DNA of 64,000 bases. It comes from Eledone cirrhosa (lineage: Eukaryota). Under the pieces are notes generated by a model. That model had not been told where the DNA came from. It saw only the letters and a list, made by a program, of their open reading frames with translations, and did not search any database. Position 1 is the stretch's first letter; each line of letters starts with the position of its first letter. Made by a program: the position numbers and the translations under genes. Below, piece after piece: positions 2,884 through 63,975 of the stretch. The stretch covers positions 39,246,001-39,310,000 of the forward strand of contig OZ024741.1 in the NCBI GenBank assembly GCA_964016885.1, read 5' to 3'.

Positions 2884-4871
2884 AAGGTGGATTGGGTGGA
2901 CCAAAGCCATACGGACCCCCCAAAACCATGATCAGGTAAGAAAAATGGTCGCACATGCAATAGGGGCTAGTATTAAAACTACCCTGAAGGACCACATATT
3001 CAAATTCAACGAGAAGATCTACACCCATAATCAGGGAGCAGCCATTGGCGTCAGCATAGCTGGTGACGTCGCCAAACTTTTTCATGGTATGGTGGGAAAG
3101 GAGACTTAAAGATCTCCTTAATGAGAGCTCCATAGACCTCATCATGTACACTCGTTACGTAGACGATATCAATATAGTTATAAGAACATCCCCACTAGAG
3201 AGTACTAACAAGTTTGATTTAGAACGTAGCACAATGGAAAGCATCCAGCAGATAGCTAATTCCATACACCAGAGTATAACAGTAACTACCGACTACCCTT
3301 CCAAACACCCTAACAATAGACTACCTGTATTAGACACGGAACTCTGGATTAACACTATAGACGAGAGAGCCCAAATTCTCCACTAACACTACGCTATACC
3401 TATGGCCTCCAAATACCTGATACTCAAAATCTCAGCAATGTCCAGTAGTGCTAAGTTTAATATTCTGATCGCAGACTTGGTACGAGTGATGAAGAATGTG
3501 TCCGCGTGTGCGACCCAATAGAAATGGAAAGACACATCCAACACTTCATCAACCGCATGCAGTTCTCTGGCTACAACAAAAGAGACAGAATCAGAGTATA
3601 CGAAGGAGCCACGGAGAAGTATAAGACCCTCATACAACTGAACATGAAAGGAATTTGCCCATTATGCAGGAGCAAATCATGGAATAGCTTAGATAGGACT
3701 AGACATAAGATAGGGAAAGCCACATCATGATACGTCAACCAGAGATACCAGAGGGTCATGTTCGTGGACGCTACCCCTGGAGGGAAATTAGTTAAGCAGT
3801 GTAGAAAGGCCCTGAGAAAAACCCACTTAAAGATTAAGGTGGTAGAAAACCAGGAACCACCATAAAATCCTGATCAGCAAAACCTACCCTTTTAAGAAAA
3901 CCCACTGTACTAATAGGAAATGTATTATATGTAAAGTAAACCCCCGGATAAACTGTAAAACTAGAAACGTAGTCTATAGCATAAGATGTACAGAGGGTAC
4001 TTGCAGAAACATGACAACAACATACATAGGTGAGACAGCTCCTAGCATGGGTGAAAGGATAGACCAACACTGGGGGGAACTAAAAGGACGAAAAAACGGT
4101 TCAGTACTATACGAACACGCCAGACAACAACACGATGGTAACATAGACAACATAGAAGTCAGAATAATATCTAAACATAGAAATTACCCAGCAGTTAGGC
4201 AAATCAGAGAGGCCAGCGAAATAGAACTAGAAGGCCAAAGCTAAACAGAAAAAATGAATGGAATAACAACAACACCCAAACAAACAATACTGACCTAAGA
4301 GAAGTATAAATAAATAAATGAATAAATAAATAAATAAATAAATACATACACAAGCACAATAACAACAAACACATGTAAACACACACTAGTAAACTAAGAT
4401 AGAATACAATAACCAACACACAGTCACCCAAACACGAACACGCATCAAACACTATACACACACGCAAACGCATGCGCAGAGAAGAAGACAAAAATAAATA
4501 AATAAATAAATAAATAAACGGATTAAATAAAGATGGCGTAGATATACAATACAACAGGAGGAAACATAATAGCACCACTAACGATGTTGCAGATGTGCTA
4601 CGAAAGAACTTTGTTAGACTATATATATGTGTTTGTGTCTGTTTATATGTGTAATTTTGACCGTTGGTCAGTCAATGGTAACATTGAGGACCGAATAAAT
4701 TAAATTAACTGATATAAAGACACAGAAGTGAAAACCAACCAGACAGTGAGTGTGTTCTGTTATTATTTCTGGCAATATTATTACACAAATATGACCCTCC
4801 CCAAGTATAACAATATTTGTTTCGGCACACGATTTCATATAAAAAACCTCGCAAAACTAATTCATCGCCGT
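2884..4871 (+). mobile_element. 5'-truncated, frameshifted Penelope-like element (Nematis-like), copy A
   Basis: ORF pieces with GAAIG, YTRYVDD, LPVLD and YIGET motifs, closely similar to ORF 6648..8099. The 3' UTR has a degenerate HHR (4574-4615) and a tail ending catcgccgt-(TA)n. Confidence 0.92.
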
Positions 4872-6118: not shown

Positions 6119-8508
6119 TACTTGGGGAGGGTCATATTTGCGTAATATTGCCAGAATTAATAACTGAACACACTCACTGTTTGGTTGGTTTTCGCTTCTC
6201 GCTGTCTTTTATATCTGCGATCTAACTTACTCGGTCCTCAATGCTGCCATTGACTGACCGACGGTCAAAAATAATACAGATACAATATAGACACAAACAC
6301 ATATATATAGTTTACATAATTTACATAAATCTTTCGTTGCACATCTGCAACATCGTCAGTGGTGTTATATTCTTTGTTCCTCCTGTTGTGTTGTATGTCT
6401 ACGCCATTTTTTTTTTTTAATTCAGTCTGTCTATATATTTATTTATTTATTTGCTTGTTTGTTTATCTTATTTTATTTTGTCTTCTTTGCGCATGCGTTT
6501 GCGTGTGTGTATAGTGTTATGTGTGCTGTGTGACTAGTGTGTATAGTGTTGTGTCTGCTGGGTGACTAGTGTGTGTTTATGTGCTTGTTGTTATTGTGCT
6601 TGTGTATGTATTTATTTATCTTATTTTATTTTATTTTATTTACTTATTTATACTTCTCTTAGGTCAGTGTTGTTTGTTTGGGTGTTGTTGTTGTTCCACT
6701 CATTCTTTCTGTTTAGCTTTGGTCTTCTAATTTCTATTTCACTGGCCTCTCTGATTTGCCTATCTGCTGGGTCATTACTATGTTTAGATATTATTCTAAT
6801 TTTTATGTTGTCTATGTTACCGTCATGTTGTTGTCTAGCATGTTCGTATAGTACTGACCCGTTTTTTCGTCCTTTTAGTTCCCCCCAGTGTTGGTCTATC
6901 CTTTCACCTATGCTACGAGCTGTCTCACCTATGTATGTTGTTGTCATGTTTCTGCAAGTACCCTCTGTACATCTTATGCTATAGACTACGTTTCTAGTTT
7001 TACAGTTTATCCGGGGGTTCACCTTACATATGATACATTTCCTATTGGTACAGTGGGTTTTCTTAAAAGGGTAGGTTTTGCTGATCAGGGATTTTATGGT
7101 GGCTCCTGGCTTTTCTACCACCTTTATTTTTAAGTGGGTCTTTCTCAGGGCCTTTCTACACTGGTTAGCTAATTTCCCTCCAGGGGTGGCGTCCACAAAC
7201 ATGACACTCTGATATCTCTGGTTGTCGTACCATGATGTGGCCTTTCCTATCTTATGTCTAGCCCTATCTAAGCTATTCCATGATTTGCTCCTGTATAGTG
7301 GGCAAATTCCTTTCATGTCCAGTTCTATGAGGGTCTCATACTTTTCCATGGCTCCTTCGTATACTCTGACCCTGTCTCTTTGGTTGTAGCCAGAGAACTG
7401 CATGCGGTTGATGAAGTGTTGGATGTGTCTTTCCATTTCTGTTGGGTCGCACATGCTAGACACATTCTTCATCACTCGTACCAAATCCGCGATCAGAATA
7501 TTAAACTTAGCACTACTGGACATTGCTGAGTTTTTTAGTATCAGGTATTTGGAGGCCATGGGTTTAGCATAGTATGAGTGGAGAATTTGAGCTCTCTCGT
7601 CTATAGTGTTAATCCAGAGTTCTGTGTCTAATACAGGTAGTCTATTGTTAGGGTGTTTGGAAGGGAAGTCGATAGTTACAGTTATACTCTGGTGTATGGA
7701 ATTAGCTATCTGCTGGATGCTTTCCATCGTGCTACGTTCTAAATCAAACTTGTTAGTGCTCTCTAGTGGGGGTGTTCTTATAACTATATTGATATCGTCT
7801 ACATAACGAGAGTACATGATGAGGTCTATGGAGCTTTCATTAAGGAGATCTTTAAGTCTCCTTTCCCACCATACCATGAAAAAGTTGGCAACATCACCAG
7901 CTATGCTGACGCCGATGGCTGCTCCCTCATTTTGGGTGTAGATTTTCTCATTGAACTTAAATATGTGGCCCTTTAGGGTAGTTTTGATACTAGCCCCTAT
8001 TGCATGTGTGACCATTTTTCTTACCTGATCAGTGTTTTGGGGGGTCCGTATAGCTTTGGTCCACCCAATCCACCTTCCTATGGGAGTCTTTTTAGCCATT
8101 GAGGTTATGGTGGGGGTCTACGTCTTATAGGTCTACTAGGGCAGAAACATCTAAGGTCATGGCTGTCTCGGTAGTCATTGTCGTAGGTAAGTCTATGTAG
8201 GAGGCCCAGTTCGTCTGTGTCGACGTCGCAGAACTCCACCTCACTCTCAATGATCATCTCCACACATCTTTTCACAGAAAAATCAATGTTAATGGATGGG
8301 TACAGTGACACCACATCCATGCTGCCTATTATGCAGTTGGATAGGCTCCTGTTTTTGTTGCACTCACTGATTCTGCTGAGGAGGTCCTCTGTACTTTCAC
8401 ATACATCTGGGGAGATCTTGATTATGGGGCGTATAACCATTGAGAGGAAGTAGGAAATCCTGTAGTTGCTAGCTATATTAGCTCCGCATACGAGTCTTGT
8501 TGGTGGTC

Positions 8509-8600: not shown

Positions 8601-8717
8601 GAAAACGTATGACCACGAAGGGTCATATTTTTTCCCATTTCCCACTCTACTACCCTAAGTATTGAGTACTCTGGTGCGTTATGGTCCATTTGGTTCCTTA
8701 CCACAATTCCTTTGTTA
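8598..8717 (+). repeat. Family-T PLE tail remnant with short fold-back
   Basis: cccactctactaccctaagtattgagtactctggtgcgttatggtcc...gt-(TA)n, homologous to 22107-22218. Confidence 0.75.
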
Positions 8718-8729
8718 TATATATATACA

Positions 8730-10332: not shown

Positions 10333-10423
<91 letters not shown>

Positions 10424-10426
<3 letters not shown>

Positions 10427-10621
10427 CGAAGGAAATCTCGTAAGGAACCAGGTGGACCATAACGCACCAAAGTACTCAATACTTAGAGTAGTAGAGTGGG
10501 TAATAGGAACGAGTAAGACCGCGACGGCTGAGCTCAAGCCGTTTCGACGGCTAATTCTGGACTAAAAAGAATTAGACGTCGAAACGGCTTGAGCTCAGCC
10601 GTCGGGGTCCTACTCGTTCCT
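10424..10621. mobile_element. Family-T fold-back element (tail plus HHR half, inverted) in (TA)n
   Basis: An ~80-nt tail followed by the hairpin aggaacgagtaagacc...gagctcaagccgtttcgac / gtcgaaacggcttgagctc...ggtcctactcgttcct. Confidence 0.85.
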
Positions 10622-10721
10622 ATATATATATATATATATATTTCAAAAGTATAGATCTCCAGTTAAAGTTTGATAAGTTGTTTTAGATATATGTGTCAAT
10701 CGATACTTTATATATATATAT

Positions 10722-12599: not shown

Positions 12600-13497
12600 T
12601 GAAAACATGGCGTGCTGCGTGGTTGCAAATGCGTTACATATGAATAAATTTAGTCCTTCATCAGTGATCTTCCAGCCTTCATTGGTATTTCATCGCTTTA
12701 AAGACCATATACCTCTGGTTGGTGCGAGAATCGGCTAAAGAAAGTCGTTGGGACACGTAAATAGAGGGAACGAGCGAGACAGTAAACAAACGAAGATGGG
12801 AATGCAACGAAAAGTGAGGAAGCAGGAATCAAGTCCCTGAAATCGATGAACATAAGTTCTGTGAAATCGTAGACGAGAGAGAATAAAGACCATCCGACCT
12901 GGTCGAAATGTGAGTGAGGAAAGAATTTCGCACAGGTCAATCGGGAGGAAGTAGGAGAGCGAGTAGCAGAGAGTGAGTGAGTGAAAGTGTGAGGAAGAGG
13001 CTAACAGAGATAGTGACTGGCAGAAGGGGTAAAAGGAAGTGAGAGATATAGAGAAAAGGGAAGCACTAAGAAAGAAACAGACGGGTCACAGCGGAGGAAA
13101 ATATATAAATATATGAAAAATATGAAAACATGGCGTGCTGCGTGGTTGCAAATGGGTTACATATGAATAAATTTAGTGCTTCATCGGTGATCTTCCAGCC
13201 TTCATTGGTATTTCATCGCTTTAAAGACCATATACCTCTGGTTGGTGCGAGCAACGGCTAAAGAAAGTCGTTGTGACACGTAAATAGGGGAACGAGCGAG
13301 ACAGTAAACAAACGAAGATGGTAATGCAACGAAAAGTGAGGAAGAAGGAGTCAAGTCCCTGAACATAAGTTCTGTGAAATCGTAGACGAGAGAGAATAAA
13401 GACCATCCAACCTGGTCGAAATGAGAGTGAGGAAAGAATTTCGCACAGGTCAAACGGGAGGAAGAAGGAGTCAAGTCCCTGAAATAGATGAACATAT
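12600..13497 (-). repeat. Tandemly duplicated non-coding repeat (~520-bp period), pLTR-like
   Basis: 12600-12955 is repeated at ~13122-13470. A diverged relative lies at ~29550-29775. Confidence 0.7.
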
Positions 13498-13500
13498 ATA

Positions 13501-13687
13501 TAACGAAGGAATTGTGATAAGGAACCAGATGGACCATAACGCACCAGAGTACTCAATACTTAGGGTAGTAGAGTGGGTAATAGGAAAAAGTATAACCCGA
13601 CGTCAGAGTTCAAGCCATTTCGATGGCTATTTCTGGACTAAATAGCCGAAACGGCTTGAGCACTGCCGTCGGGATCATACTTTTTCC

Positions 13688-13689
<2 letters not shown>
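13501..13689. mobile_element. Family-T fold-back element
   Basis: Tail plus the hairpin aggaaaaagtataaccc... / ...gggatcatactttttcct-(TA)n. Confidence 0.85.
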
Positions 13690-13725
<36 letters not shown>

Positions 13726-16140: not shown

Positions 16141-16186
<46 letters not shown>

Positions 16187-16188
<2 letters not shown>

Positions 16189-16312
16189 CCGTCGAAACGG
16201 CTTGAGCTCAGCCGTCGGGGTCCTACTCGTTCCTATTACCCACTCTACTACCCTAAGTATCGAGTACTTTGGTGCGTTATGGTTCATCTGGTTCCTTACC
16301 ACATTTCTTTCG

Positions 16313-16314
<2 letters not shown>
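16187..16314 (+). mobile_element. Family-T PLE 3' end (HHR stem III plus tail)
   Basis: agccgtcgaaacggcttgagctcagccgtcggggtcc...ttcgt, between (TA)n tracts. Confidence 0.85.
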
Positions 16315-16345
<31 letters not shown>

Positions 16346-16956: not shown

Positions 16957-17097
16957 ATATGAAAGAGTTGTGAGTCTGGAACTAAATGTTGAAACGGTAA
17001 GACCTCAACTGTCGGGGTCCCGACACTTTCATATAACCATACTCAACTACCCCAAGTATCTTATGTCATTTTAATATATATATATATGTATGTATAT

Positions 17098-18660: not shown

Positions 18661-18749
<89 letters not shown>

Positions 18750-18761
18750 TATATATATATG

Positions 18762-18804
<43 letters not shown>

Positions 18805-18813
18805 ACCAGTAAG

Positions 18814-18907
18814 ACCCCGACAGCTGAGCTCAAGCCGTTTCGACGGCTAATTCTGGACTAAATGAAAATTTATCCTGGTATTTAAATAGCCGATCTTCTC
18901 AAGGGGT
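18814..18907 (-). ncRNA. Non-canonical type I hammerhead (U3:A8 core)
   Basis: acccc-TTGAGAA-gatcggctattt...aattagccgtc-GAAA-cggcttgagctcagct-GTC-ggggt. All three stems can pair, triplet GUC. Confidence 0.7.
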
Positions 18908-20019
18908 AATTCCATATATGGTCAAAGTGATTGTCAAAAATCAGTAGTAATTCTGTGGTTGCAAATTAGTAGGGGAGATGGTGGCTAAACCTGCCAGTAG
19001 GAGAAAGAGGGGAGGGGGTGGAGTAGACCCAATCAAGCGTTGGTAGTGCCAGCTACAGCTGGGCATGAGGTCAAAGAAGATACAGGGGAGGGGGAGGGGG
19101 AGGAAGTCGGAACGGTAGGTAGAACAATGGGGGGTAGAAATATATAGGAAAGAAAAGAAAAAATACTGAGAGTGAAGAAAAGCAAATAAGTGTAAAGAAA
19201 AAAGTAAAGTAAATTAAATACTACGACCTAGGTCTCAGGCTATTGTTAGGCTAGAATAAAATAAATAAAGAAAGAAAGAAGTAAATAAATAAATAAATAA
19301 ATAAATAACGAAATAAGTAAAAGAACTAGGTGGGACGAGATAGGCAAGGACCCTTTTAAGAGGTATAAGTACGTAAATGATACGGTGACGGGTCAACAAA
19401 AGGGGCCAAAATACTAAAGAGACTACCACGAAATAAACAATAAAGGTTTCCATCCCGGGCCAGCAACGACCCAGTGCAGCAAAGTGAACTTGTACGAGAT
19501 AATAATTCTGAGTCCCGAGAAAAATATATACTAATGCTAACTCTAAAAGATCTAAAACAAGCTACATGAAAGTTCGTACGAAATAAAGGTAGAATACGGA
19601 GAAATAAATTCAGAATCCACCCCGCCCAGAAGAAAAGCGAAGCAAGAAATACTGAAACGAAAAAATAAGGCATAAGTGCCACTAAGAAATATAGAGGGCA
19701 CAGAGAATAGTGGGAGCGGTCGGAAAAAGGGGGCAAGTATCCGGGGTCTAAGCCAACTGCTATAAAGGGCGGAGTCCGCCAAATCTATCATAGACTAGGG
19801 GAGGGGGTGGTGGGGGTACTAAGGCTACATGGGGCCAAAGGGCAGCCTCGGGTGGGCGAGAAAAGACGCCGACAAAGGAGAAGAGCTGGGGTAGAAGGAC
19901 TAAGGAGAGAGGGGGGAAGGAAATAAAGGAAGCGATAAAAGAATACAAAGAAGATCTTACGTCTTCCTTGGCAAGCAAGGGTTACCCATTGCAAAATCGG
20001 CAAGTGGGGTGTTATAGCC

Positions 20020-22105
20020 CTAGTCTACCCCCCCCCCCCCCCCCGGGTCATTATGGGGTTTGAGGGCGAGGTAAGTCCTACGCAATCTATGTTTACATGC
20101 AGTGACCAGTTCATCTTTCTTGTTTAGGAGTTGGTCCGTCGAAAACAGCATTTGTAAAGTTTCCTCCGAGCATAAATTGCACGGACGGCGTCCTCCCGTG
20201 TAAGAATTGGCTCTGGACAGTAATCTCCAAGTGAGATCATAGGTGATGTTGTTGTCCTTGAGGTCCCATATGTGGCCCGAAAGTGTAGTGGCGTGACGCC
20301 GGGCCGGGTTTCGGAAGGTATGTCTATGTTGGTATAGCCGGGTCTTGAAGTCACATGCGGTAAGTCCTATATAGGCTTTGTTGGAGGTATCCGTCCTCAC
20401 GTTGCACTGGTAGATCACATTACGGTCTCTGCATCTATTGTCGAGTGGGCAAATAGATCTATCCGGGCAGTTACACCTCCTGGTCGGTTCTCCACTGCTA
20501 TTTAGGTTATTTCTGCCATCGGGGTTGAGTTTTTTGTTGTTAGAGGAGACGATGTTTTGTGCGAAGTTTGGTGTAGTACTGTAAGAGAGATTGATGGTAT
20601 TTTTGTTAATTATGTTGTGGTAGCGGTGTTGTAATGGGAAGTGTTTTTCAATGAGCCTAAAGAATAGTTTCCCGATGGGAGTTGTCACCTCTGCGTTGTG
20701 GGGAGGATTGAACCATGTTACATTGCGTGAGCGGCGATGTCTCCTGCTGGTTCCGCTAATGGGAGCTGGACAGTAGGATATTTCCTCCCGGAAACCACTC
20801 CGCTTGAGGGCCTGGTTGTAATAAGGCGCATGTTCATCGAATATCCGCTCATTAGCTGACAAACGGGATATGCGGAGGGAGATGTTTTTGACCAGGTTGT
20901 TTGTGATGTTCCTAGGATGGTTTGATCGGCGGTGGATGTAGTGCAGATTGTCATTAGGTTTCCTGTATGGGTAGTACAGGTCGTTTTCGAGGTCGAGGGT
21001 CACGTCCAGGAAGTTTACTCGGGTCAGGTACGTTTGTAGGGTTATTTTAAATCCCCAGTCGCGGAAGAATCTGATTAATTGTTTCCGGACCCGATCTGTA
21101 CTACTGGGGTTGTACCCTTTAAGGGTAAGGAGCCCATCATCACGGTACAATCCACCACCGAATGCAGGAAACATATCAGTGAGTTTGGCTATTAGGAATA
21201 ATCCTATAAGATCTGTGACCTCCGCCGAATCCGTGGCGCCCATGCTGACGTCGAAGGGTGAGTCGGGAGCTCTTTTTATCCATTTAGAGTCGTCAAAGAG
21301 TAAGACTGTCTTCCTGGCGTGGAGGATGATTTTTCTTTCCTGGTCGGTGATGGGCACAAGTGTTTCGGCGAAGTCCAAGGCGGCAGTAAGTAGCGGTAAG
21401 GTGATTGAAGCATAGTAGCTCTATGTCGAACTGTATGAATTTAGTTTCTCGTTTATCCTCCATATTGCTGAACCAGGAGATTACTTCCTGGGTGTTGATC
21501 CATAGGCTAAGTCGGGTGTGTTGCTTGACTTTTGGTATCACGCGGTCTAGGATTTTTTTGCTGATTCTCTCTATGTCGGACTTCGTTGGGTTAATAAGCC
21601 TGATAGAGGGTTTACGGTCAAAATCGGATTTATGGTCCTTCAGTGTGAAGTATGGTGTCCGTGGGTCTAGAGGTTCCGTGCGGTCGGCGACCCCGAGGCT
21701 GGAGGTGATTTGTTGTCCATCTCGATTTATGTCCTCGATGCAAGAGTCGTTGGCCTTTTTATAGGTGGAGTTTAGGCTGCTCCTGATCAGTGTGTGGTAT
21801 CTGTCAGGGTTGACAAAGTATAGGTTCCCAGTTTTATCCGAATGCACCATGATGTCATTTGTGTTATCATACTCTGTTAAGTTGCTACGGAGTTTTTGTA
21901 GGAATCGGTTGTGTCTGGGTTTAAATTTAATGTTCTTGACCAGTTGGAAGAGGTCATTCTCGAAGGGTGCGAGCAAGGGGTTCAGGGGCGGAGATTTGTA
22001 GGTAATAAATACGAATCTCTCCTTGGTGCCGAAGTCTTGGTTGTCGCAATATCTGTCATAGAAAAAAGTTCTCCATCTAAGTCTTTTCGCAAATAGATCG
22101 ATTTT
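20020..22105 (-). pseudogene. PLE RT plus GIY-YIG ORF with a single frameshift near 21418
   Basis: RLRWRTFF, SDKTGN, FDIE (frameshift), FDVSMGA, LYRDDGL, FLDV, CNC..C..C, VIYQC...YIGLT, and C-terminal CNLC...LLN...CKH. Confidence 0.9.
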
Positions 22106-22216
22106 TTGAGCTCAGCTGTCGGGGTCTTACTGGTTCCTATTACCCACTCTACTACCTCAAGTATTGAGTACTTTGGTGCGTTATGGTCCACCTGGTTCCT
22201 TACCACATTTCCTTCG

Positions 22217-22663
<447 letters not shown>

Positions 22664-26023: not shown

Positions 26024-26235
26024 TTCATTTCTGAATTTGTTTAGCAAGATTCTTTATCTGAAAACGTGTGTTGAAACCGATATTGTTATACTTTGGGAGG
26101 GTCATGCTGCCAATAAGAAACACACGCACCAGTTCTTTTCACTCCAATTTATTATAAATTAAATTTATAAATTTAAGAATTTATAAATTTCCGGTTGGTT
26201 GGTTGGTTCCACAACCGGACAGTTGTTCATATATT

Positions 26236-26278
26236 GTCAAAGTTCTTTCGTCACACATTATGTGACCTCTTCAGTGAC
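26236..26278 (-). ncRNA. Type I hammerhead in PLE 3' UTR
   Basis: gtca-CTGAAGA-g-gtcaca-taatg-tgtgac-GAAA-G-aa-CTT-tgac. Confidence 0.8.
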
Positions 26279-27230
26279 TGGGGATTCTTTTCTTTGTTTT
26301 GTGCCTCTCATTTGTTCTGTCCTACACCATCTTGTTTTTGTGTGTTGTGTGCTTACTTTGCGCATGTGTTACATCCGGGTGTCTGTGTGTGCTTTTATTT
26401 GTTTATTTATTTGTTTATTTACATGTTATTGGTTGGTTGTTTGTTCTATGTGTGTGTGTGTTTTCATTTTGTCCTTAATTATAAGTTGTGATGCTGCTAT
26501 TCCATTCATGTTTTCTATTTAATTTTGGTTGGAGTTCATTTATGTTTATTGCCTCTGTCATTTGTCTAAACATTGCGTCTTTTCTGTGTGTAGATTCTAT
26601 TTTTATTTCTATGTTTTCTAATTTACCCTTATGTTCTATTTTAGCATGTTGGTGGAGTATTGATGATTTTTTTAATCTTGAAGCTCTCGCCACTGTTCAT
26701 TTAATCGTTCTCCTATACTACGAGCTGTCTCACCTATGTACACTATATTCTTAGCTTTACATTGTCCCTCAGTACATCTTATGCTATATACTATGTTTCT
26801 AGTTTTGCAGTTAATATGCTTAGTTTACAGATTATGCATTTCTTATCTATACAGGGAGGTCTTTGAAAAGGGTATGTATTACTAATAAGAATTTTTATGG
26901 GGGTACCTGGTCTTTTCACTATCTTAATATTTAGTTTAATTTTATCTAGGGCCCTTCTAAATTTGTAAGCTAATTGACTTCTAGGGGTTGTATTGATGAA
27001 CATTACACTCTGGTATTTATTGCTATCATACCATGAGTTTATTCTGTGGAACGGGTGGATCAGAGCCATACGAACCCCCGAAAACCATGATTAACTAAAG
27101 GAAATGATTTAACATGCGGTGGGGGCCAGTATAAAATTAACCCTTAAGGAACATATGTTCAAATTTAATGGAAAAATATATGTCCAAGAGGAGGGAGCAG
27201 CCATTGGTGTTAGCATTGCAGGTGACATAG

Positions 27231-28196
27231 CTAACCTATACATGGTATGGTGGGACAATAAACTTGAAGAACAATTAGAAGACAACAACCTCTTAGCCCT
27301 GATAATGAACTCTCGCTACGTTGATGATATAAACATCGTTTATCTAGGGCCCTTCTAAATTTGTAAGGTAGTTCACCTCTAGGCGTTGTATTGATGAACA
27401 TTACACTCTGGTATTTATTGCTATCATACAATGAGATTATTCTATTAATCTTATTCCTAGTTCTTTCTATTCTATTCCAAAATTTGCTCCTATACAAGAG
27501 GCAGGTCCCATTTGTATCATTATTTACCATTTTTTCCCATTTGGTTCTGGCTCCTCTATATACTCTGATTTTATCTCTCTGATTGTAGTCAGAGAACTGC
27601 ATAGGGTGGATGAAGTGTTGTATGTCTCTCACTAGTTCTTTGGGGTTGCACATGCGGGACACGTTCCTCATCACCCGTACTAAATCCGCAATCAGTATGT
27701 TGATTTTGGTGTGATCCGAAACAGCTGAGTTTCGGTGGATCAGGTATTTGGAAGTCATGGGTTTGGCATAATGGGAATGGAGGATTTGTTTTTTGTTGTT
27801 AATAGTTTCTAACCAGAGCTCTGTGTCTAGTACAGGTAATCGATGGTTGGGGTGTTTGCTTGGGTAGTCTATAGTAACTCTAATACTCTGGTGGATGGGG
27901 TTAGCTATTTGCTGGATGCTTTCCATGGTGTTTTTCTCTAATTTCTGACTGTTCTCTAGTGGGGGTGTTTTTATTACGATGTTTATATCATCAACGTAGC
28001 GAGAGTACATTATCAGGGTTAAGAGGTTGTTGTCTTCTAATTGTTCTTCAAGTTTATTGTCCCACCATACCATGTATAGGTTAGCTATGTCACCTGCAAT
28101 GCTAACACCAATGGCTGCTCCCTCCTCTTGGACATATATTTTTCCATTAAATTTGAACATATGTTCCTTAAGGGTTAATTTTATACTGGCCCCCAC
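27231..28196 (-). pseudogene. PLE RT fragment (chimeric at its C-terminus)
   Basis: QEEGAAIG, YSRYVDD and LPVLDTELW, homologous to 6648..8099. Confidence 0.85.
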
Positions 28197-29036
28197 CGCA
28201 TGTTAAATCAATTTCTTTAGTTAATCATGGTTTTCGGGGGTTCGTATGGCTCTGATCCACCCGTTCCACAGAATAAACTCATGGTATGATAGCAATAAAT
28301 ACCAGAGTGTAATGTTAATCAATACAACCCCTAGAGATCAATTAGCTTACAAATTTAGAAGGGCCCTAGATAAAATTAAACTAAATATTAAGATAGTGAA
28401 AAGACCAGGTACCTCCATAAAAATTCTTATTAGTAATACATACCCTTTTCAAAGACCTCCCTGTATAGATAAGAAATGCATAATCTGTAAACTAAGCTCC
28501 CATATTAATTGCAAAACTAGAAACATAGTATATAGCATAAGATGTACTGAGGGACAATGTAAAGATAAGAATATAGTATACATAGGTGAGACAGCTCATA
28601 GTATAGGAGAATGATTAAATGAACACTGGCGAGAGCTTCGAGATAGAAAAGATTCATCAGTACTCCACCAACATGCTAAGATAGAACATAAGGGCAAATT
28701 AGAGAACATAGAAATAAAAATAAAATCTACACAGAAAAGACGCAATGTTTAAACAAATCACAGAGGCAATAAACATAAATGAACTCCAACCAAAATTAAA
28801 TAGAAAACATGAATGGAATAGCCACATCACCACTAGTAACATGTAAATAAACAAATAAATAAACAAATAAATAAGCAAATAAATAAGCAAATAAATAAAC
28901 AAATAAATAAACAAATAAAAATACACACAGACACCCGGATGTAACATATGCGCAAACTAAGCACACAACACACACAAAAACAAGATGGCGTAGGACAGAA
29001 CAAAGGAGAGGCACAAAACAAAGAAAATAATCCCCA

Positions 29037-31819: not shown

Positions 31820-32314
31820 AAAAATTGAAAATTAGAATTGGTGCTCTGAAATAGCGATATATATATGAATGTATATATAGTGTATTTTGCAATACACTGT
31901 ATGCTTAATTAAAAGCATTTCGAAGACCTTACGCTATTGTTTTAGAGTAGTGACAGCCTCACTTACATTCATATATATCGCTATTTCAGAGCACCAATTC
32001 TAATTTTCAATTTCTACTTGACCGGCAACCGCTCTGTATAATCAGTTCCTGATTATTACTAGAATTCTATAAGAATCAAACATTCATGATTTTCAGCAAA
32101 CAGGCGGAGTACTTAGCTTTGATAAGCACCAAAAAGTGCGAAACAGAGCTCTGTCAGCTTTATCTCCCCTATTTGCTGAAAATTAAAGTGAGGTTGTCAC
32201 TACTCTAAAACAATAGCGTAAGGTCTTCGAAATGCTTTACATTAAGCATACAGTGTATTGCAAAATACACTATATATACATTCATATACATATATCGCTA
32301 TTTCAGAGCACCAA

Positions 32315-32320
<6 letters not shown>
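31820..32320. mobile_element. Fold-back element with U3:A8 hammerhead
   Basis: 31830-31965 is inverted relative to 32185-32320, with an extra short copy at 31966-32015. The right end lies in (TA)n. Confidence 0.75.
32115..32159 (+). ncRNA. Non-canonical type I hammerhead (U3:A8 core)
   Basis: agct-TTGATAA-gcac-caaaaa-gtgc-GAAA-caga-gc-tct-GTC-agct. A distal stem I extension (ttttcagcaaa/tttgctgaaaa) spans ~32090-32182. Confidence 0.75.
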
Positions 32321-32397
<77 letters not shown>

Positions 32398-33828
32398 TAG
32401 AGTAATAGAGAGTCCATGTCTGGCGGCTGAGATCTTGCTGTTTCGATAGCAAATTCCAGACTCTGAAATTTGCTGTCAAAACGGCAAGAGCTCGGCCGTC
32501 GTACACTGACTTTCTACTATACCAAGAGATGATTCATTTCTTCTGATTCTAGTTGTTTCCCGAATGAAGAAACCACGGTTCTGAGAGCCGAGAGGAGATT
32601 GTGCAGGATGCGAGAGCGGAGCTCAGAGCTACTGCTGACTGCGAGAGTAGAGCTCAGATCCACTCCGAAAGAAGCATACCAGTCAGATTTCCAACAATGA
32701 AAGGATCGCTAGTCTAAGTGTATGGAAGTAAAAGTGGCCTGCTTTGAAGGGACTTAGCAATTGAACTCCAAATATGTAATTTTTTTCTATAATATCGCAT
32801 AATTTTTAAACAGCCCTTGCATGTGCCTTTGTGTGTGAGTTTGTATACGCGTGCGCGTATTGTTTGTGTGTGCGCTTGCATGTGCAGATTTCGTTGTGAA
32901 AGAGGGAGAAGGAGAACTCAATAGGTGAGGCATTGTATATATATGACATTTCATCTGCTGAAGGAACTACCTGAGTACTAATAGAGTTTCATGCCGAAGC
33001 ACTCCTACGAGAGTAGTTTGGCTCAAAACACTAACTCCCCGAGTAACTCTTATACAAAATAAAAGCGGAAGACAGATGTATGCACACACACACATACACA
33101 AACATACGCACACACACACACACAGCACACACACACACACACACTCACACAAACACATTCATACAAACCAAATCACACACGCCTGCACATACACACATAC
33201 ACACACACATACACACACACATACACACATACACATACACACACACATACAGACATACGCTCACACACACACACACAAATTCATGCAAATCAAATCACAC
33301 ATGCATGCACGTACACAGATACACACATACACATACACACACACATACAGACATACACTCACACACACACAGACACAAACACATTCATACAAACCAAATC
33401 ACACACGCATGCACATACACAGATACACACATACACATACACACACACATACAGACATATGCTCACACACACACACAAAAAACCTACACACACACAAATT
33501 CACACACATATATATATATATATATAAAGAGAGAGAGGGACACGATACACACAACCATGATGTACTACGTGTTTCTCTGTTTACGTATTACGTTATAATC
33601 GGATAAATATACATACAATTATACACACAGACACACACATAGACATATGTTCATGTACACAAACACACACACAAACACACGTACACACACAACAAACGCA
33701 CACATGCATACACATAGACACACACCTTGGTGACGTACATGTTTCTATATTTGCATATTGTACAGCCATGAGTATATTTATTTTGTCATTTATCTCCAAT
33801 GTTCGCTCCTCAGAGGTGGAGGAGAATT

Positions 33829-41431: not shown

Positions 41432-41460
41432 ATATATATATATATATACATATATATGTA

Positions 41461-41525
41461 ATAGGAAAAGAGTCAGGACCCCGACGGCTGAGCTCGGGCT
41501 GTTTCGACAGCTTGATCTGAACGCT
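41461..41525 (-). repeat. Family-T fragment (HHR stem III side)
   Basis: aggaaaagagtcaggaccccgacggctgagctcgggctgtttcgac. Confidence 0.7.
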
Positions 41526-44744: not shown

Positions 44745-47700
44745 AATGTAACCCGTGAACTCTTTCCCGGGCAAAATTATTCGAACAGACATGATCTCAT
44801 TGCCAGAGTGTTCAGACTGAAACTGGCTAAACTCATGGCTTTAATAAAAAGGTCAGTTACTCGGGGCTGTAAAATGTGACATGTTCACCGTCGAATGGCA
44901 AAAACGAGGGCTGCCACATGCTCACATTTTGATTTGGTTAGCTGATAAAATCAATTCAAATGCCATAGACAGCTTCATTTCGGCTGAAATCCCTAACCCA
45001 GCAACTGACCAGGAATTACATGACATCGTCAAAGCTAACATGGTCCGTGTGCGTTGGGTCCTAATGAGCATCACACGTGTCTAAAAGGGGGATCGTGCAG
45101 TAAGGGATACCCAAAACAATTTGTTGACCAGACTCAGACTGGTGGCGACGGGTAACTCCTGTACAGGCGGAGACGGCTCGAGAACGGTGGCTTCACCACA
45201 ACAGTAAAGGGAGGTCAAGTCGACAATAGATGGGTGGTCCCTTACTGCCCGCTTCTCTTGAAGATGTTCAACGCCCACATCAACGTTGAGTTTTGCATCT
45301 CCGTCAAGTCGATAAAATACATATGCAAATATGTAAATAAGGGCTCTGATGCCGCAATGTTCGCATTTCAAGCAGAAAATAGCAGGGACGAGGTCACAGA
45401 ATACCTGGCGGGGCGGTACATCAGTAGCAATGAAGCTTTTTGGCGCCTATTTGGTTTACCCCTACACCAACGTCACCCCACCATCGTACAGCTTGCGGTA
45501 CATTTGGAAAATGGGCAAAGGGTTTACTTTACGGACCAAACCGCCGCCAAGTTGGAAACTGACGGGTTTCTTCAAACTTTGCCAGTTCGATACATTTGCG
45601 CAAACAATTGTGTACTCCCAAGTTGCATCCTACTTTATATGGTCGAAAAACACTTGGGTCCGAAGAAAGTCAGGTCAGGCTGCTGAAAGACATCCTGGTG
45701 TAAAATTTGACAGCTGTCTTGGAAGTGTTTACACTGCGCCCCCAAGTCAGCATGAGTCCTTTCATCTCCGCCTTCTTCTGCATGAAGTTGTAGGCCCACA
45801 AAGTTTTCAGGACTTCAAAACTGTTGATGGAGAAATATGTGATACGTACCGGGAAGCCTGCTTTAAGCGTGGTCTTTTGGAAGATGATTCGCAATGGGAT
45901 TCCACTTTAGCAGAGGGTGATTTGTTGAAATCACCTTAAGGTCTACGGGAACTCTTTGCCATTTTGCTTCAAAAGTTTGAATTGGGTGATCCCAAATCTT
46001 TATGGGTCAAGTACGGAGACTTCATGTCTGAGGGCTTCCTGCGCCTGGCTCATCTGCAGTATACTTCAGTGGAAGTTGGTTACAGCGACATTATCTACAA
46101 CAGGGCACTCATTGATATCGAAGACGCCCTCCTCGACATGGGTGGGAGTGAATTGGCGACGTATGGCTTGCCGTCAACCGTCAGAGAGGAGGCTAACACG
46201 TTGGCCCCGGATTTGTTGCGGAAAACAGCATATGACATCGAATCTCTTTCCCAATACTTAAAGGTTGGCCTATTTAACTATCATTGACGCGGTTCAAAAT
46301 CAGACTGGGGGTATTTACTTTCTCGATGCTCCTGGGGGTACCGGAAAAACTTTTGTAACGAAATTGATTCTCGCTAAGATTCGTCAGGAGAAAAAAATTG
46401 CGTTGGCCGTTGCATCGTCCGGATCGCTGCTACTTTGCTGCCGGGAGGCAGGACAGCATATTAAACCTTTAAACACCCCTTGGATTTAGTAAAAACTGAG
46501 ACACCAACATGCAATATCAGCAAAAGTTCACACGAAGCTCTGGTTCTCAAAAAATGTTGCCTCATTGTTTGGGATGTGTGCACAATGGCACACAAGCTCT
46601 TGAGGCATTGGACAGGACTCTGAAAGACATTAGGGATTCTACGGCTCCTATGGGTGGCGTAACCCTTCTGCTATCAGGGGATTTTCGGCAAACGTTTCCT
46701 GTCATACCCAAAGGGACAAGAGCTGATGAAGTGCGTGCCTGCCTTAAGTCGTCCATGTTGTGGCTCTAGGTGAAGAGTTTGTACCTGAGCACAAATATGC
46801 GTGCTCATTTGCATGGTGATATGTCTGCAGCATTTGCTCAGAATATTTTAGCACTTGGTGAGGGCAAGGCGGCATAGCAATCGACTCCCTGTGCAACATT
46901 GTGAGCAGACCTTCTGACCTTTGAGAAGCAGTTTTTCCTAATGTCTCATCTAACTTTAAAAACCTCGATTGGCTCAGCGAAAGAGCCATCCTTGTCCGAA
47001 AAATACCATGGTTAATTTTATTAACGAGCAGCTGATTGAGAAGTTTCCCGGTAAAGAACACATCTTCAAATCTATCGACCGGACGTCAGACACCGACGAT
47101 ATCGTTAATTATCCGGTTGAGTTATTAAATTCTCTTGAGCCCCCAGGGCTCCCACCTCACATTCTAAAGCTTAGGGTTGGCTATCCCATTATGCTAATAA
47201 GGAACTTGCGTCCACCAAAGCAGTGCAACGGTACTCGCATGGTCGTCAAGTCACTGACGCCCCACTTGATTGAGGCCACCATTGTAACGGGGTGCGGGAG
47301 AGGGGAGAATGTTTTCATTCCAAGGATGAACCTTTTCCCCTGGGCGTCAGATATCCAGTTCGATTTCCGGCTATCCCAATTCCCGGTGAGACCATGTTTT
47401 GCCATGTCCATTAACAAGTCACAAGGGCAAACATTGTTGGTGGCGGGCATTCATTTGGGGGAGCCATGCTTCTCCCATGGCCAACTTTATGTTGCCTGTT
47501 CCCGCGTAGGGAGCAGGAATGGACTTTTTGCTTACACTCCTCAAGGGATGACACGCAATATCGTCTACAAAGAGATGCTATATATGTTGGTGCAGGTGCT
47601 GGAGCTATGCCGTCTGGAAAACTGGTAGGGTCACCCATAGCGGACAGATCTGACACCCAGCGGCATCAGGGTCACCATCTTGCAACTTTGGTCTACTAAA

Positions 47701-54199: not shown

Positions 54200-54510
<311 letters not shown>

Positions 54511-54511
54511 T

Positions 54512-54700
54512 AATAAAGAGGGTGTGGTAAGATATCAGGTGGACCATAACGCACCAGAGTACTCAATAGTTAGGGTAGTAAAGTGGATAACAGGAAAAGA
54601 GTCAAGACCCTGACAGCTGAGCTCCGGCCGTTTTGACACGATTTGGGATTTAGCTGTCGAAACGGCCGGAGCTCAGCCGTGGGGGTCTTGACTCTTTTCC

Positions 54701-54703
<3 letters not shown>
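54512..54703. mobile_element. Family-T fold-back element (diverged subfamily)
   Basis: Tail plus aggaaaagagtcaagaccc... / ...gggtcttgactcttttcct. Confidence 0.8.
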
Positions 54704-54731
<28 letters not shown>

Positions 54732-60238: not shown

Positions 60239-60261
60239 ATATATATATATATATATATATA

Positions 60262-60370
60262 TAACAAAGAAAGTGTGGTAAGAAACTAGGTGGATCATAA
60301 CGCACCAGAGTACTCGATACATAGGGTAGTAGAGTGGATAATAGGAAAAGAGTCAGGTCCTGACTCTTTT

Positions 60371-62605: not shown

Positions 62606-63750
62606 TAGCAGCAAGCCACCGGAGTAGCCAGGTGCACTAGAATGGGCCCCAACTACACCAACCCTTTCGTTGGCTACATTGAGGACCAGATCTTTGCCCA
62701 AAACACTGGTTCCACCGCCGAACTATGCGATCGTTATATTGATGACTATATCGGTGCCACGACTCTCACCCGGGAACAGCTCGACTCCTTTCTCTCCTTC
62801 CCCTGCTCCTTCCATCCCTCCCTCCACTACCACCTATGTCCACTTCTTGGACATCTCCGTCGCTATCGACCCCTCATCACCTCTGCTTTCTTCAAACCTA
62901 CTGACTCCTTCAACTTTACCTCCTCCCACCCCACTCACACCAAACACTCCAGTCCCTACACCCAACATCTCCGGATCCACCGCCTTTGCAGTCAACATGC
63001 GGATTTGAAACCTAGGCCCTTTCTCTAGTCCATCATTTCACCCGGAGGGGTTACACCACTCCCTTGTCTACGCCGCCCTTACCTGCTCCCGCGCCGTCCA
63101 CGACACCCCACCCTCACCCCACATACTCACCTCCAACCCAACGACTCCCTTTCCCCAACACCTACCAGCCCGACATCCTACCCCTCTAACGAACCATCCT
63201 ACACCTCTTCCAACGCCTCCAGTCAGAAACCTCCACCACTCATGTCTTCCCACTCCTACCTCTCCCCTCCTTCAAAAGCGCACGCAACCTCCGCAATCTT
63301 CTCGTCCGCAGCTCCCTACCCCCCAAACACGTTCCTTTCCTGGATCCCCTCCCTGCTCCCGACCCCCCCCCCCCCCTTCCACACATGCCCCCACATCACC
63401 AACTTAACAACCCTCCAGAGACCCAATGGCCACTCCGTTCCTGTCCGTCATTCCTTTCGCTGCACCTCCCCCAGCCTTGTCTACGGACTCCGCTGCACAG
63501 CGTGCGGTGTGACCTATGTCGGAGAGACGGGACGCCGGTTAGCCGACCGGTTGGCTAACCGGTTCGCCGAAAACCTTCACAACATCCTCCTCGGCTCGTG
63601 TTTCCCCGTCGCTCGTCACTTCTGCTCTGCCGGGCATTCCGCTCGCAACTTGACCGTCCGCGGCCTGATTGCGTGTCCTGCAGCCCCGGATGCGCGACTG
63701 AGGGCCGAGCAACGCACGATTTTCCAACATACACTCTCCCTGATTTAAAA
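62606..63750 (+). mobile_element. Decayed Penelope-like element (Neptune-like)
   Basis: MGPNY..FVGYIE, RYIDD, FLDI, KPTD, SSHP, CPHI, LVYGLRC..C...YVGETGRRL and PVARHF. Frameshifted. Confidence 0.88.
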
Positions 63751-63849: not shown

Positions 63850-63940
63850 GGTGAGCTGGGCTGTTTCGATAGCTAGATCCGAAGTGTTTGGATCTAGCTC
63901 TCGAAACGGGCGGAGCTCAGCCGGTGGGGTCCTGACTTTT

Positions 63941-63942
<2 letters not shown>
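63850..63942 (+). mobile_element. Family-T hairpin (diverged)
   Basis: gagctgggctgtttcga...tcgaaacgggcggagctcagccggtggggtcctgacttttc-(TA)n. Confidence 0.7.

Positions 63943-63975
<33 letters not shown>

Follow-up and report, generated by a model that had tools for sequence, protein, structure and literature searches.

A U3:A8 hammerhead motif in the terminal repeat of a young Penelope-like element of Eledone cirrhosa, and the insertion ends at and inside it

In R2 retrotransposons, the 5' end made by a ribozyme is copied into genomic junctions. That ribozyme, an HDV-like one at the 5' side of the element, leaves an uncapped 5' end (PMC6765202). Penelope-like elements (PLEs) carry hammerheads, and hammerheads with a U3-A8 core pair were published for PLEs in 2014, with approximately 1,300 matches in Schistosoma, so that this core is not new; the accessible text of the same paper gives in vivo evidence for PLE hammerhead cleavage as absent and reports weak cutting in vitro for the motifs tested (PMC4209133). 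For an anole PLE, two internal start sites and extension of both strands were described in vitro, where cleavage was not needed for insertion, and in the accessible part of that report no RNA-seq reads end at the cut (PMC11167929). Whether and to what purpose PLE hammerheads cut in vivo is the question on which insertion ends bear. Our literature search, which covered subscription papers sparsely, found no report of PLE copies ending at a hammerhead cut, nor of a start site inside a PLE ribozyme.

Here we analyzed a stretch of 64,000 nucleotides of the Eledone cirrhosa assembly (the window; Table 1) together with its relatives across the genome. Our data suggest that a U3:A8 hammerhead in the terminal repeat of a young PLE, likely of the Hydra clade, likely cuts RNA in vivo and that transcription likely starts within its loop II; we give this reading a probability of approximately 0.7. 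As read from the assembly, each insertion lies in (TA)n and comprises two head-to-head copies of the 3' end with outer ends at +20 and approximately +100, while short copies have their inner ends concentrated at -41/-45 and at 0. All such positions are numbered from the predicted cut between 18819 and 18818. What is new is the element family and its record of insertion ends; the ribozyme variant was already known.

Table 1. Features of the hammerhead, its host element and the related short repeats in the window
Feature	Position	Strand	Basis
Complete type I hammerhead motif, U3:A8 core	18814..18907	-	sequence, predicted fold, family conservation
Stem I 5' strand ACCCC	18903..18907	-	sequence
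Core TTGAGAA (U3-U4-G5-A6-G7-A8-A9)	18896..18902	-	sequence, genome matches
Stem II 5' strand, one bulged base near core	18884..18895	-	sequence, fold, covariation alignment
Loop II; subfamilies vary there except TTAGT(C/T)	18853..18883	-	natural-copy alignment
Two overlapping initiator-like motifs; putative starts 18859 (-41) and 18863 (-45)	18856..18865	-	arm ends, cap-like extra G
Stem II 3' strand	18842..18852	-	sequence, covariation alignment
Core GAAA	18838..18841	-	sequence
Stem III, palindromic loop GAGCTC (18831-18826)	18820..18838	-	fold
GTC/GUC triplet (18821-18819); predicted cut between 18819 and 18818	18818..18821	-	arm-end pile-up genome-wide
Stem I 3' strand GGGGT (18818-18814) and 20-nt end (+20, near 3' terminus)	18799..18818	-
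Long arm of PLE insertion, 5'-truncated at unit position 269	18799..22108	-	97.9% identical to intact unit
3' UTR / pseudo-LTR upstream of hammerhead	18908..20019	-
3' part of RT + GIY-YIG ORF, 466 aa frame; frame broken near 21419	20020..21420	-
5' part of ORF, 272 aa frame, DKT motif; gene start missing	21293..22111	-
Inverted arm: last 15 nt before cut and long tail, ends +100	22106..22223	+
Target microsatellite (CA)n/(TA)n, left flank	18662..18798	.
Target microsatellite (TA)n, right flank	22224..22270	.
Short inverted pair of 3' ends, older subfamily	10420..10623	.
Short inverted pair of 3' ends	13497..13690	.
Short inverted pair of 3' ends	22276..22453	.
Short inverted pair of 3' ends	54253..54391	.
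Short inverted pair of 3' ends, D-type subfamily	54523..54704	.
One arm of short inverted pair, D-type, approximate limits	63895..63963	.
Single arm with tail	16186..16319	+
Single arm, tail only	8620..8721	+
Diverged single arm	16988..17059	+
Single arm beginning near -41	41458..41512	-
Tail fragment	60258..60347	-

The hammerhead motif and its core

The original prediction had placed a hammerhead on the minus strand at the 3' end of a PLE, and we found its stems, core, GAAA, GAGCTC palindrome and GUC triplet all at the predicted positions (18907-18814). As in type I hammerheads, three helices surround the core and open at stem I, the 3-8 pair is Watson-Crick (U3:A8), and the core is completed by GAAA and by GUC as the NUH triplet. 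The three-way junction is the predicted minimum-energy fold of 18907-18814 (minus), with pair probabilities of 0.70-0.97 in stem I and 0.61-0.75 over the first eight pairs of stem II; the stability of the fold is not above that of shuffled sequences (energy z = 0.41). A relaxed type I descriptor matched four times in the window compared to none in 30 block-shuffled windows. Among the 150 of 175 Rfam matches listed, no hammerhead match fell at 18814-18907, which is a test against a library and not of a defining property. The original prediction of a real type I hammerhead with U3:A8 at a PLE 3' end was supported.

Covariation of the stems, named as a check in the original prediction, gave a mixed picture. 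Across 30 natural copies, three stem II pairs are altered on both sides, and doubly changed cells (15) exceed those in shuffles (7.6 +/- 2.0; 0/500), whereas the number of doubly changed pairs (4) is not above that in shuffles (3.9). The covariation as a whole reflects few events in related subfamilies. Stem I is invariant and stem III altered on one side only, so both are uninformative.

Conservation of TTGAGAA within the family, on which the original prediction depended, was confirmed: the core is present in 65 of 66 full-length family matches (retrieved loci, some overlapping) and in each of the 100 matches listed out of 2,154 found genome-wide with a pattern that left core positions 3, 7 and 8 free. 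A search with G8 returned 22 genome sites, four of them point variants of the TTGAGAA family. The same prediction called U3:A8 a rare variant; it is not rare here, because it was already published and is the majority state in the related subfamilies of this genome. A hand tally of the first 100 of 339 older-subfamily matches gave U3:A8 in 75, U3.G8 in 15, C3:G8 in 4, C3.A8 in 2 and other states in 4. Core states cluster by subfamily (7 changes compared to 15.5 when shuffled) on a tree of 48 rows drawn from 136, with most young-family rows and rows without family upstream sequence excluded; this tree does not give the direction of core changes because it has no root and its branches are long. 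In one subfamily (C-type; L155-L173, L189-L215), the core of complete copies is mostly a U3.G8 wobble, a candidate step between C3:G8 and U3:A8. Since the family is young, has intact ORFs and shows three core states (C3:G8, U3.G8 and U3:A8) in sister subfamilies, it offers a ready test set for swapping the catalytic base pair.

Further hammerheads were observed. A second, unrelated U3:A8 type I hammerhead lies at window 32114-32161 (plus), inside inverted repeats at about 31830-32320, with a TTGATAA core, a 4-bp stem II and a palindromic stem III; it was the only hammerhead among the Rfam matches listed (HH9, E = 0.0095), and a relative in L260 has compensatory changes in stems I, II and III. 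U3:A8 hammerheads of other families occur in L257 (minus strand) and at L188:2021 (plus), and the swap seems common across hammerhead families in the Eledone cirrhosa genome. A canonical C3:G8 minimal hammerhead at 26229-26279 (minus) ends another PLE family, which we take from its motifs to be Neptune-like, with ORF pieces at 27231-28202, 6648-8117 and 3060-4244 and many relatives among the retrieved loci.

The host element and its short inverted copies

The host is a young, abundant 3.53-kb PLE with intact copies and tandems. All 150 scored genome matches to its endonuclease part were 100% identical, many of them in frames of approximately 784 aa; the ORF occupies 784-aa stop-to-stop frames, with an ATG at unit position 191. 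Like EN+ PLEs in general, the element has a single ORF with RT plus GIY-YIG at its C-terminus (domains read from motifs), pseudo-LTR tandems, an inverted 5'-truncated copy, an optional tail and a hammerhead. No Pfam family was found for either half of the ORF, and its 1,781 protein relatives, nearly all unnamed, reach approximately 40-45% identity at best. By eye, the protein contains DKT, RWR, a CxCX5C linker and CxxC and CxH near the C-terminus, and no CCHH. DKT, the linker, CxxC/CxH and the lack of CCHH match the accessible description of the Hydra clade (PMC8557442), of which insertion in (TA)n is also a trait. RWR stands in place of the Hydra RWK, and Hydra-1_Crog has RWR as well in the supplement of that paper (PMC8557442). 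Judging from these motifs, the PLE likely belongs to the Hydra clade as a new family.

Tandem units measure 3,523-3,569 bp and differ by 0-7 substitutions within arrays compared to 3-79 between arrays (one non-unit row left out). Near-identical units within arrays fit a single template, which does not by itself prove a circle. A dimeric circle was considered since both four-unit arrays alternate ABAB, and was dropped: with its partial first unit array B reads A-A-B-A-B, which fits later duplication, and array A has one informative site. Of 20 loci chosen for long ORFs, seven reach the unit start; two of these end at -40 and -24, and five continue into another unit, so templates of more than one unit appear to be common. 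Such templates would be circles or multimers, which is less certain.

Some observations concern the element's surroundings. In L179:170-3741, approximately 65 head-to-tail copies of a 55-bp ORF piece lie at the arm-arm junction of a tandem array, which looks like repeated slippage or template jumping. The palindrome CCATATATGG stands directly 5' of stem I (window 18912-18921, minus) and is kept in most subfamilies while its flanks diverge; it might serve as a promoter or bind a protein. In window 62609-63748 (plus), motifs point to interrupted RT and GIY-YIG frames from another PLE-like element, and broken frames at 45156-47628 (plus) presumably belong to a Helitron, given their Rep/helicase-like motifs.

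The original prediction that about a dozen short repeats in the window carry the ribozyme's 3' half plus tail was correct, and the loci are mapped in Table 1. Its description of them as a SINE-like, ribozyme-bearing repeat did not hold up. We found that they are head-to-head pairs of the PLE 3' end, approximately 200 bp long and inserted in (TA)n, whose sequence is wholly accounted for by the PLE, which lack the 5' half of the ribozyme and whose junctions vary at nearly every locus. In the genome, the 20-mer behind the cut has 15,702 exact matches, the 3' half 9,867 and the 5' half 2,154; reversed-pattern controls gave 0. A short inverted pair that is more distant and has another stem I strand, probably from a different subfamily, lies at window 32378-32520. 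A DNA run from another sample (X5), mapped to L062:1900-3400, has a depth in the thousands over the short repeat compared to 12-90 across the ORF, and loose ends occur at +20 and +100, so the insertion pattern is present beyond this assembly.

We mapped the first 100 arms on contig C1 and counted pairs by hand; junction tallies throughout were made by hand on the first 30-100 matches listed per query, mostly from contigs C1-C2. The outer end is +20 in 47 of the 100 arms, +100 in 44 and another position in nine. None of the 36 close inverted pairs joins two +20 or two +100 ends: in 33 a +20 end (one of them +23) is paired with a roughly +100 end, and in three with another length. The +20/+100 pairing recurs in long insertions whose two ends can be seen. 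A first reverse-transcription start would then lie at the +20 end (18799..18818, minus) and a second at the +100 end of the inverted arm (22106..22223).

Inner ends and the templates they may record

The inner ends of the same 100 arms are unevenly spread. Sixty-five fall at -34 to -45, of which 23 are at -40/-41; none lies at -46 to -78, 21 lie at -3 to -30, ten at 79 or more, and four, both arms of two loci, end at 0. The A of TTAGTC lies at -41 and that of TCATTT at -45, and we take both motifs to be initiator-like by the initiator consensus. In the accessible text of two studies, initiator motifs are mentioned in PLE repeats (PMC2377424, PMC3846280). In an older subfamily, whose loop II is different, ends are likewise most frequent at -41 (8 of 30), and 20 of 30 lie at -36 to -44. 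At 2,914 loci genome-wide, the two arms both extend to -41 and meet within 13 nt. In the first 50 of these (100 arms), the base before the -41 A is T in 73, G in 13, C in 11 and A in three; the T is the templated base or belongs to the partner arm, and six of the 11 C are the complement of the partner's G. Single-base fillers at -41 are G in five of six cases, and a cap-like G is on both arms in three of 50 loci. An extra 5' G marks capped templates in L1 (PMC11702581, accessible text). Together, the arm ends and this base point to a likely transcription start inside ribozyme loop II, at -41 or -45.

A splice acceptor cutting after TTAG was rejected as the source of these -41 ends, since TTAG is not preceded by constant bases. 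At three loci (G000:C1:492972, 25028936 and 27010071), arms ending at -40 to -44 run on into ORF or 3' UTR sequence of the same orientation, likely through template jumps after run-off.

At the predicted cut, 237 loci genome-wide have both arms within 12 nt. Among the first 50, sorted by hand, 21 have both arms ending exactly after GUC with untemplated, mostly A/T filler, three are ambiguous by one base, seven have templated extensions and 19 are blunt; the blunt junctions are ambiguous since CG microhomology of one-base-longer ends would give identical letters. A control permitting shorter arms found 286 loci compared to 85 for the reversed pattern. Of the 50 listed, 11 were unrelated and dropped; of the remaining 39 family loci, 30 have a longer arm that stops precisely at 0, in two its end is ambiguous, in four it extends further, and in three both arms fall short. 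Single-base fillers at the cut are A/T in 11 of 12, compared to G in five of six at -41 (Fisher p = 0.004; n = 12 and 6). Ribozyme-cut RNA would be expected to leave just this: ends concentrated at the predicted bond, additions of the run-off type and no cap-like G. The one RNA run, available as contigs, touches three of 30 bins and was uninformative.

We propose that the PLE protein, probably as a dimer, nicks both strands of a (TA)n target and that each nicked strand would prime reverse transcription of a single RNA, one at +20 and the other at +100; the lack of close pairs with two +20 or two +100 ends, and the fact that both arms of short-pair loci stop at the same class of end, were counted towards one RNA. 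Both cDNAs would extend to the 5' end of the shared RNA and then be joined. This 5' end would mostly be a cap at -41/-45 and, in a few percent, the ribozyme cut. If capped transcripts begin at -41 (or -45), every mRNA would have its priming sites near the 5' end and only half a hammerhead there. Priming near that end would yield the common inverted pairs of approximately 200 bp, priming on RNA already cut by the ribozyme would yield pairs joined after GUC, and long or full-length copies would result when a read-through transcript has a complete, still uncut hammerhead at its 3' end and priming takes place behind it. The complete hammerhead at the 3' end of such a transcript may also be the simpler source of cut RNA. 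More-than-unit copies might, with less certainty, stem from cut-and-ligated circles or multimeric transcripts. The short repeats, to judge from their sequence, look like independent abortive PLE insertions and not a SINE.

A more specific arrangement is offered tentatively, and we consider it doubtful. The mRNA would start inside its own hammerhead, so that the ribozyme is split between the transcript ends; the capped 5' half would be inert until paired with the catalytic strand supplied by the 3' end, after which the capped leader would be removed and a cut-to-cut unit left for circularization and rolling-circle reverse transcription, the genome holding a dated record of capped and cut templates. 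Alone, the half hammerhead of the -41 transcript is predicted to form a hairpin that sequesters GAAA (-12.1 kcal/mol), and pairing between the leader and the 5' half of the downstream ribozyme is predicted to restore the junction (-23.4 kcal/mol); for an older copy, the two-strand prediction is a fold with stem III displaced. If this split arrangement is true, it would amount to in vivo evidence of PLE (and U3:A8) hammerhead cleavage during retrotransposition.

Polymerase stalling remains the main rival to ends made by cut and cap. The ends would be stops at the base of a dimer-stabilized stem III (the cut) or past stem II (-41), for instance at a bound protein, with the hammerhead acting as a folded roadblock that need not cut. 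In favor of this, the predicted cut lies only 1-2 nt from the stem III base, where a polymerase could stall, and the palindrome is predicted to form a very stable dimer duplex (-26.3 kcal/mol, compared to -4.9 as a hairpin), while the distance between the -41 stop and stem II is the same in two subfamilies and cleavage was dispensable in vitro for the anole PLE, per the accessible text (PMC11167929). However, a polymerase stopped by stem III should copy C17 first, and in 21 of 50 junctions C17 is absent from both arms and untemplated bases are present. Nor would stalls account readily for the different extra base at the two stops (G at -41, A/T at the cut), for a -41 stop on the sole conserved motif of an otherwise variable loop II, or for the two arms of one locus stopping at the same site class, and we consider stalling unlikely.

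We regard as less likely still that the inverted arm arose by fold-back (self-priming) of one cDNA, or that short pairs are post-insertion deletions of longer palindromes. Self-priming has been proposed for PLE palindromes (PMC3846280, accessible text), some junctions have microhomology, 7 of 50 near the cut have templated extensions, and PLE arrays do alter after insertion. Yet deletion would not be expected to focus on one bond or to add untemplated bases, a cap-like G sits on both arms at the loci counted above, and fold-back leaves unexplained why the second arm ends at the other fixed site. Closest to the wording of the original prediction is a non-autonomous, SINE- or MITE-like repeat that is mobilized whole from master copies of its own. 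Its appeal lies in the very high copy numbers and uniform size of the short pairs, but a constant unit is not what we found: junctions that differ from locus to locus largely refute it, long insertions are framed by the same +20/+100 pairing, every subfamily has its own short pairs matching its long form, and the pairs lack the catalytic 5' half. We consider this explanation very improbable, and we favor ends left by capped and ribozyme-cut templates.

Meaning and comparison with described systems

Insertions that stop at the predicted bond or beside it number a few hundred; those that stop within the ribozyme, at the cap-marked site, number thousands. Mapping such ends requires no more than an assembly and can be extended to any PLE family. 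PLE inverted repeats and tails can be explained simply by the strict pairing of a +20 with a longer end.

The hammerhead itself most resembles those of Schistosoma Cercyon (Cervera and de la Pena 2014, PMC4209133), which, in the accessible text, are likewise type I, lie in a pseudo-LTR and have U3-A8. PLE minimal hammerheads described there share a long stem II bulged near the core, a short stem I and a palindromic loop III, and most copies are truncated, as here (PMC4209133). In contrast, stem III here has 6 bp and is foldable as a monomer, and loop II, of about 30 nt, holds a putative transcription start, while genomic copies appear to record the cut; the accessible text of that paper gives no in vivo evidence and does not state that the assayed motif was U3-A8 (PMC4209133).

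The protein resembles the Hydra clade of C-terminal EN+ PLEs (Craig et al. 2021, PMC8557442, accessible text), which also have one ORF with RT followed by GIY-YIG, DKT, the CxCX5C linker, CxxC/CxH around the EN end and (TA)n targets; by eye, the N-terminus closely follows Hydra-1_Obim (PMC8557442). Hydra elements are generally shorter than 3 kb, compared to a 3.53-kb unit with a 1.2-kb 3' UTR here, the six Hydra rows of File S2 have C3:G8 and not U3:A8, and, unlike Hydra elements as described in that text, this family has thousands of copies with intact tandems (PMC8557442).

With Anolis Poseidon (PAc; Frangieh et al. 2024, PMC11167929, accessible text), the element shares two internal reverse-transcription starts that set the tail, extension of both target strands, AT-rich targets and a hammerhead upstream of the starts. 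PAc has C3:G8 and its hammerhead overlaps the ORF start, whereas here the starts are 80 nt apart in the 5' UTR; cleavage by PAc was seen only in vitro with protein and not in RNA-seq (PMC11167929). Animal non-LTR retrozymes also have a type I hammerhead, a PLE link and a proposed circular RNA (PMC7229834; 10.64898/2026.07.22.740005, accessible text). Their units are direct tandems of 170-400 nt with a whole ribozyme each (PMC7229834), whereas here the short repeats form inverted pairs and hold no more than the ribozyme's 3' half. Finally, in R2 the cut RNA is the productive template, whereas here cut templates would lead to tiny dead insertions unless religated.
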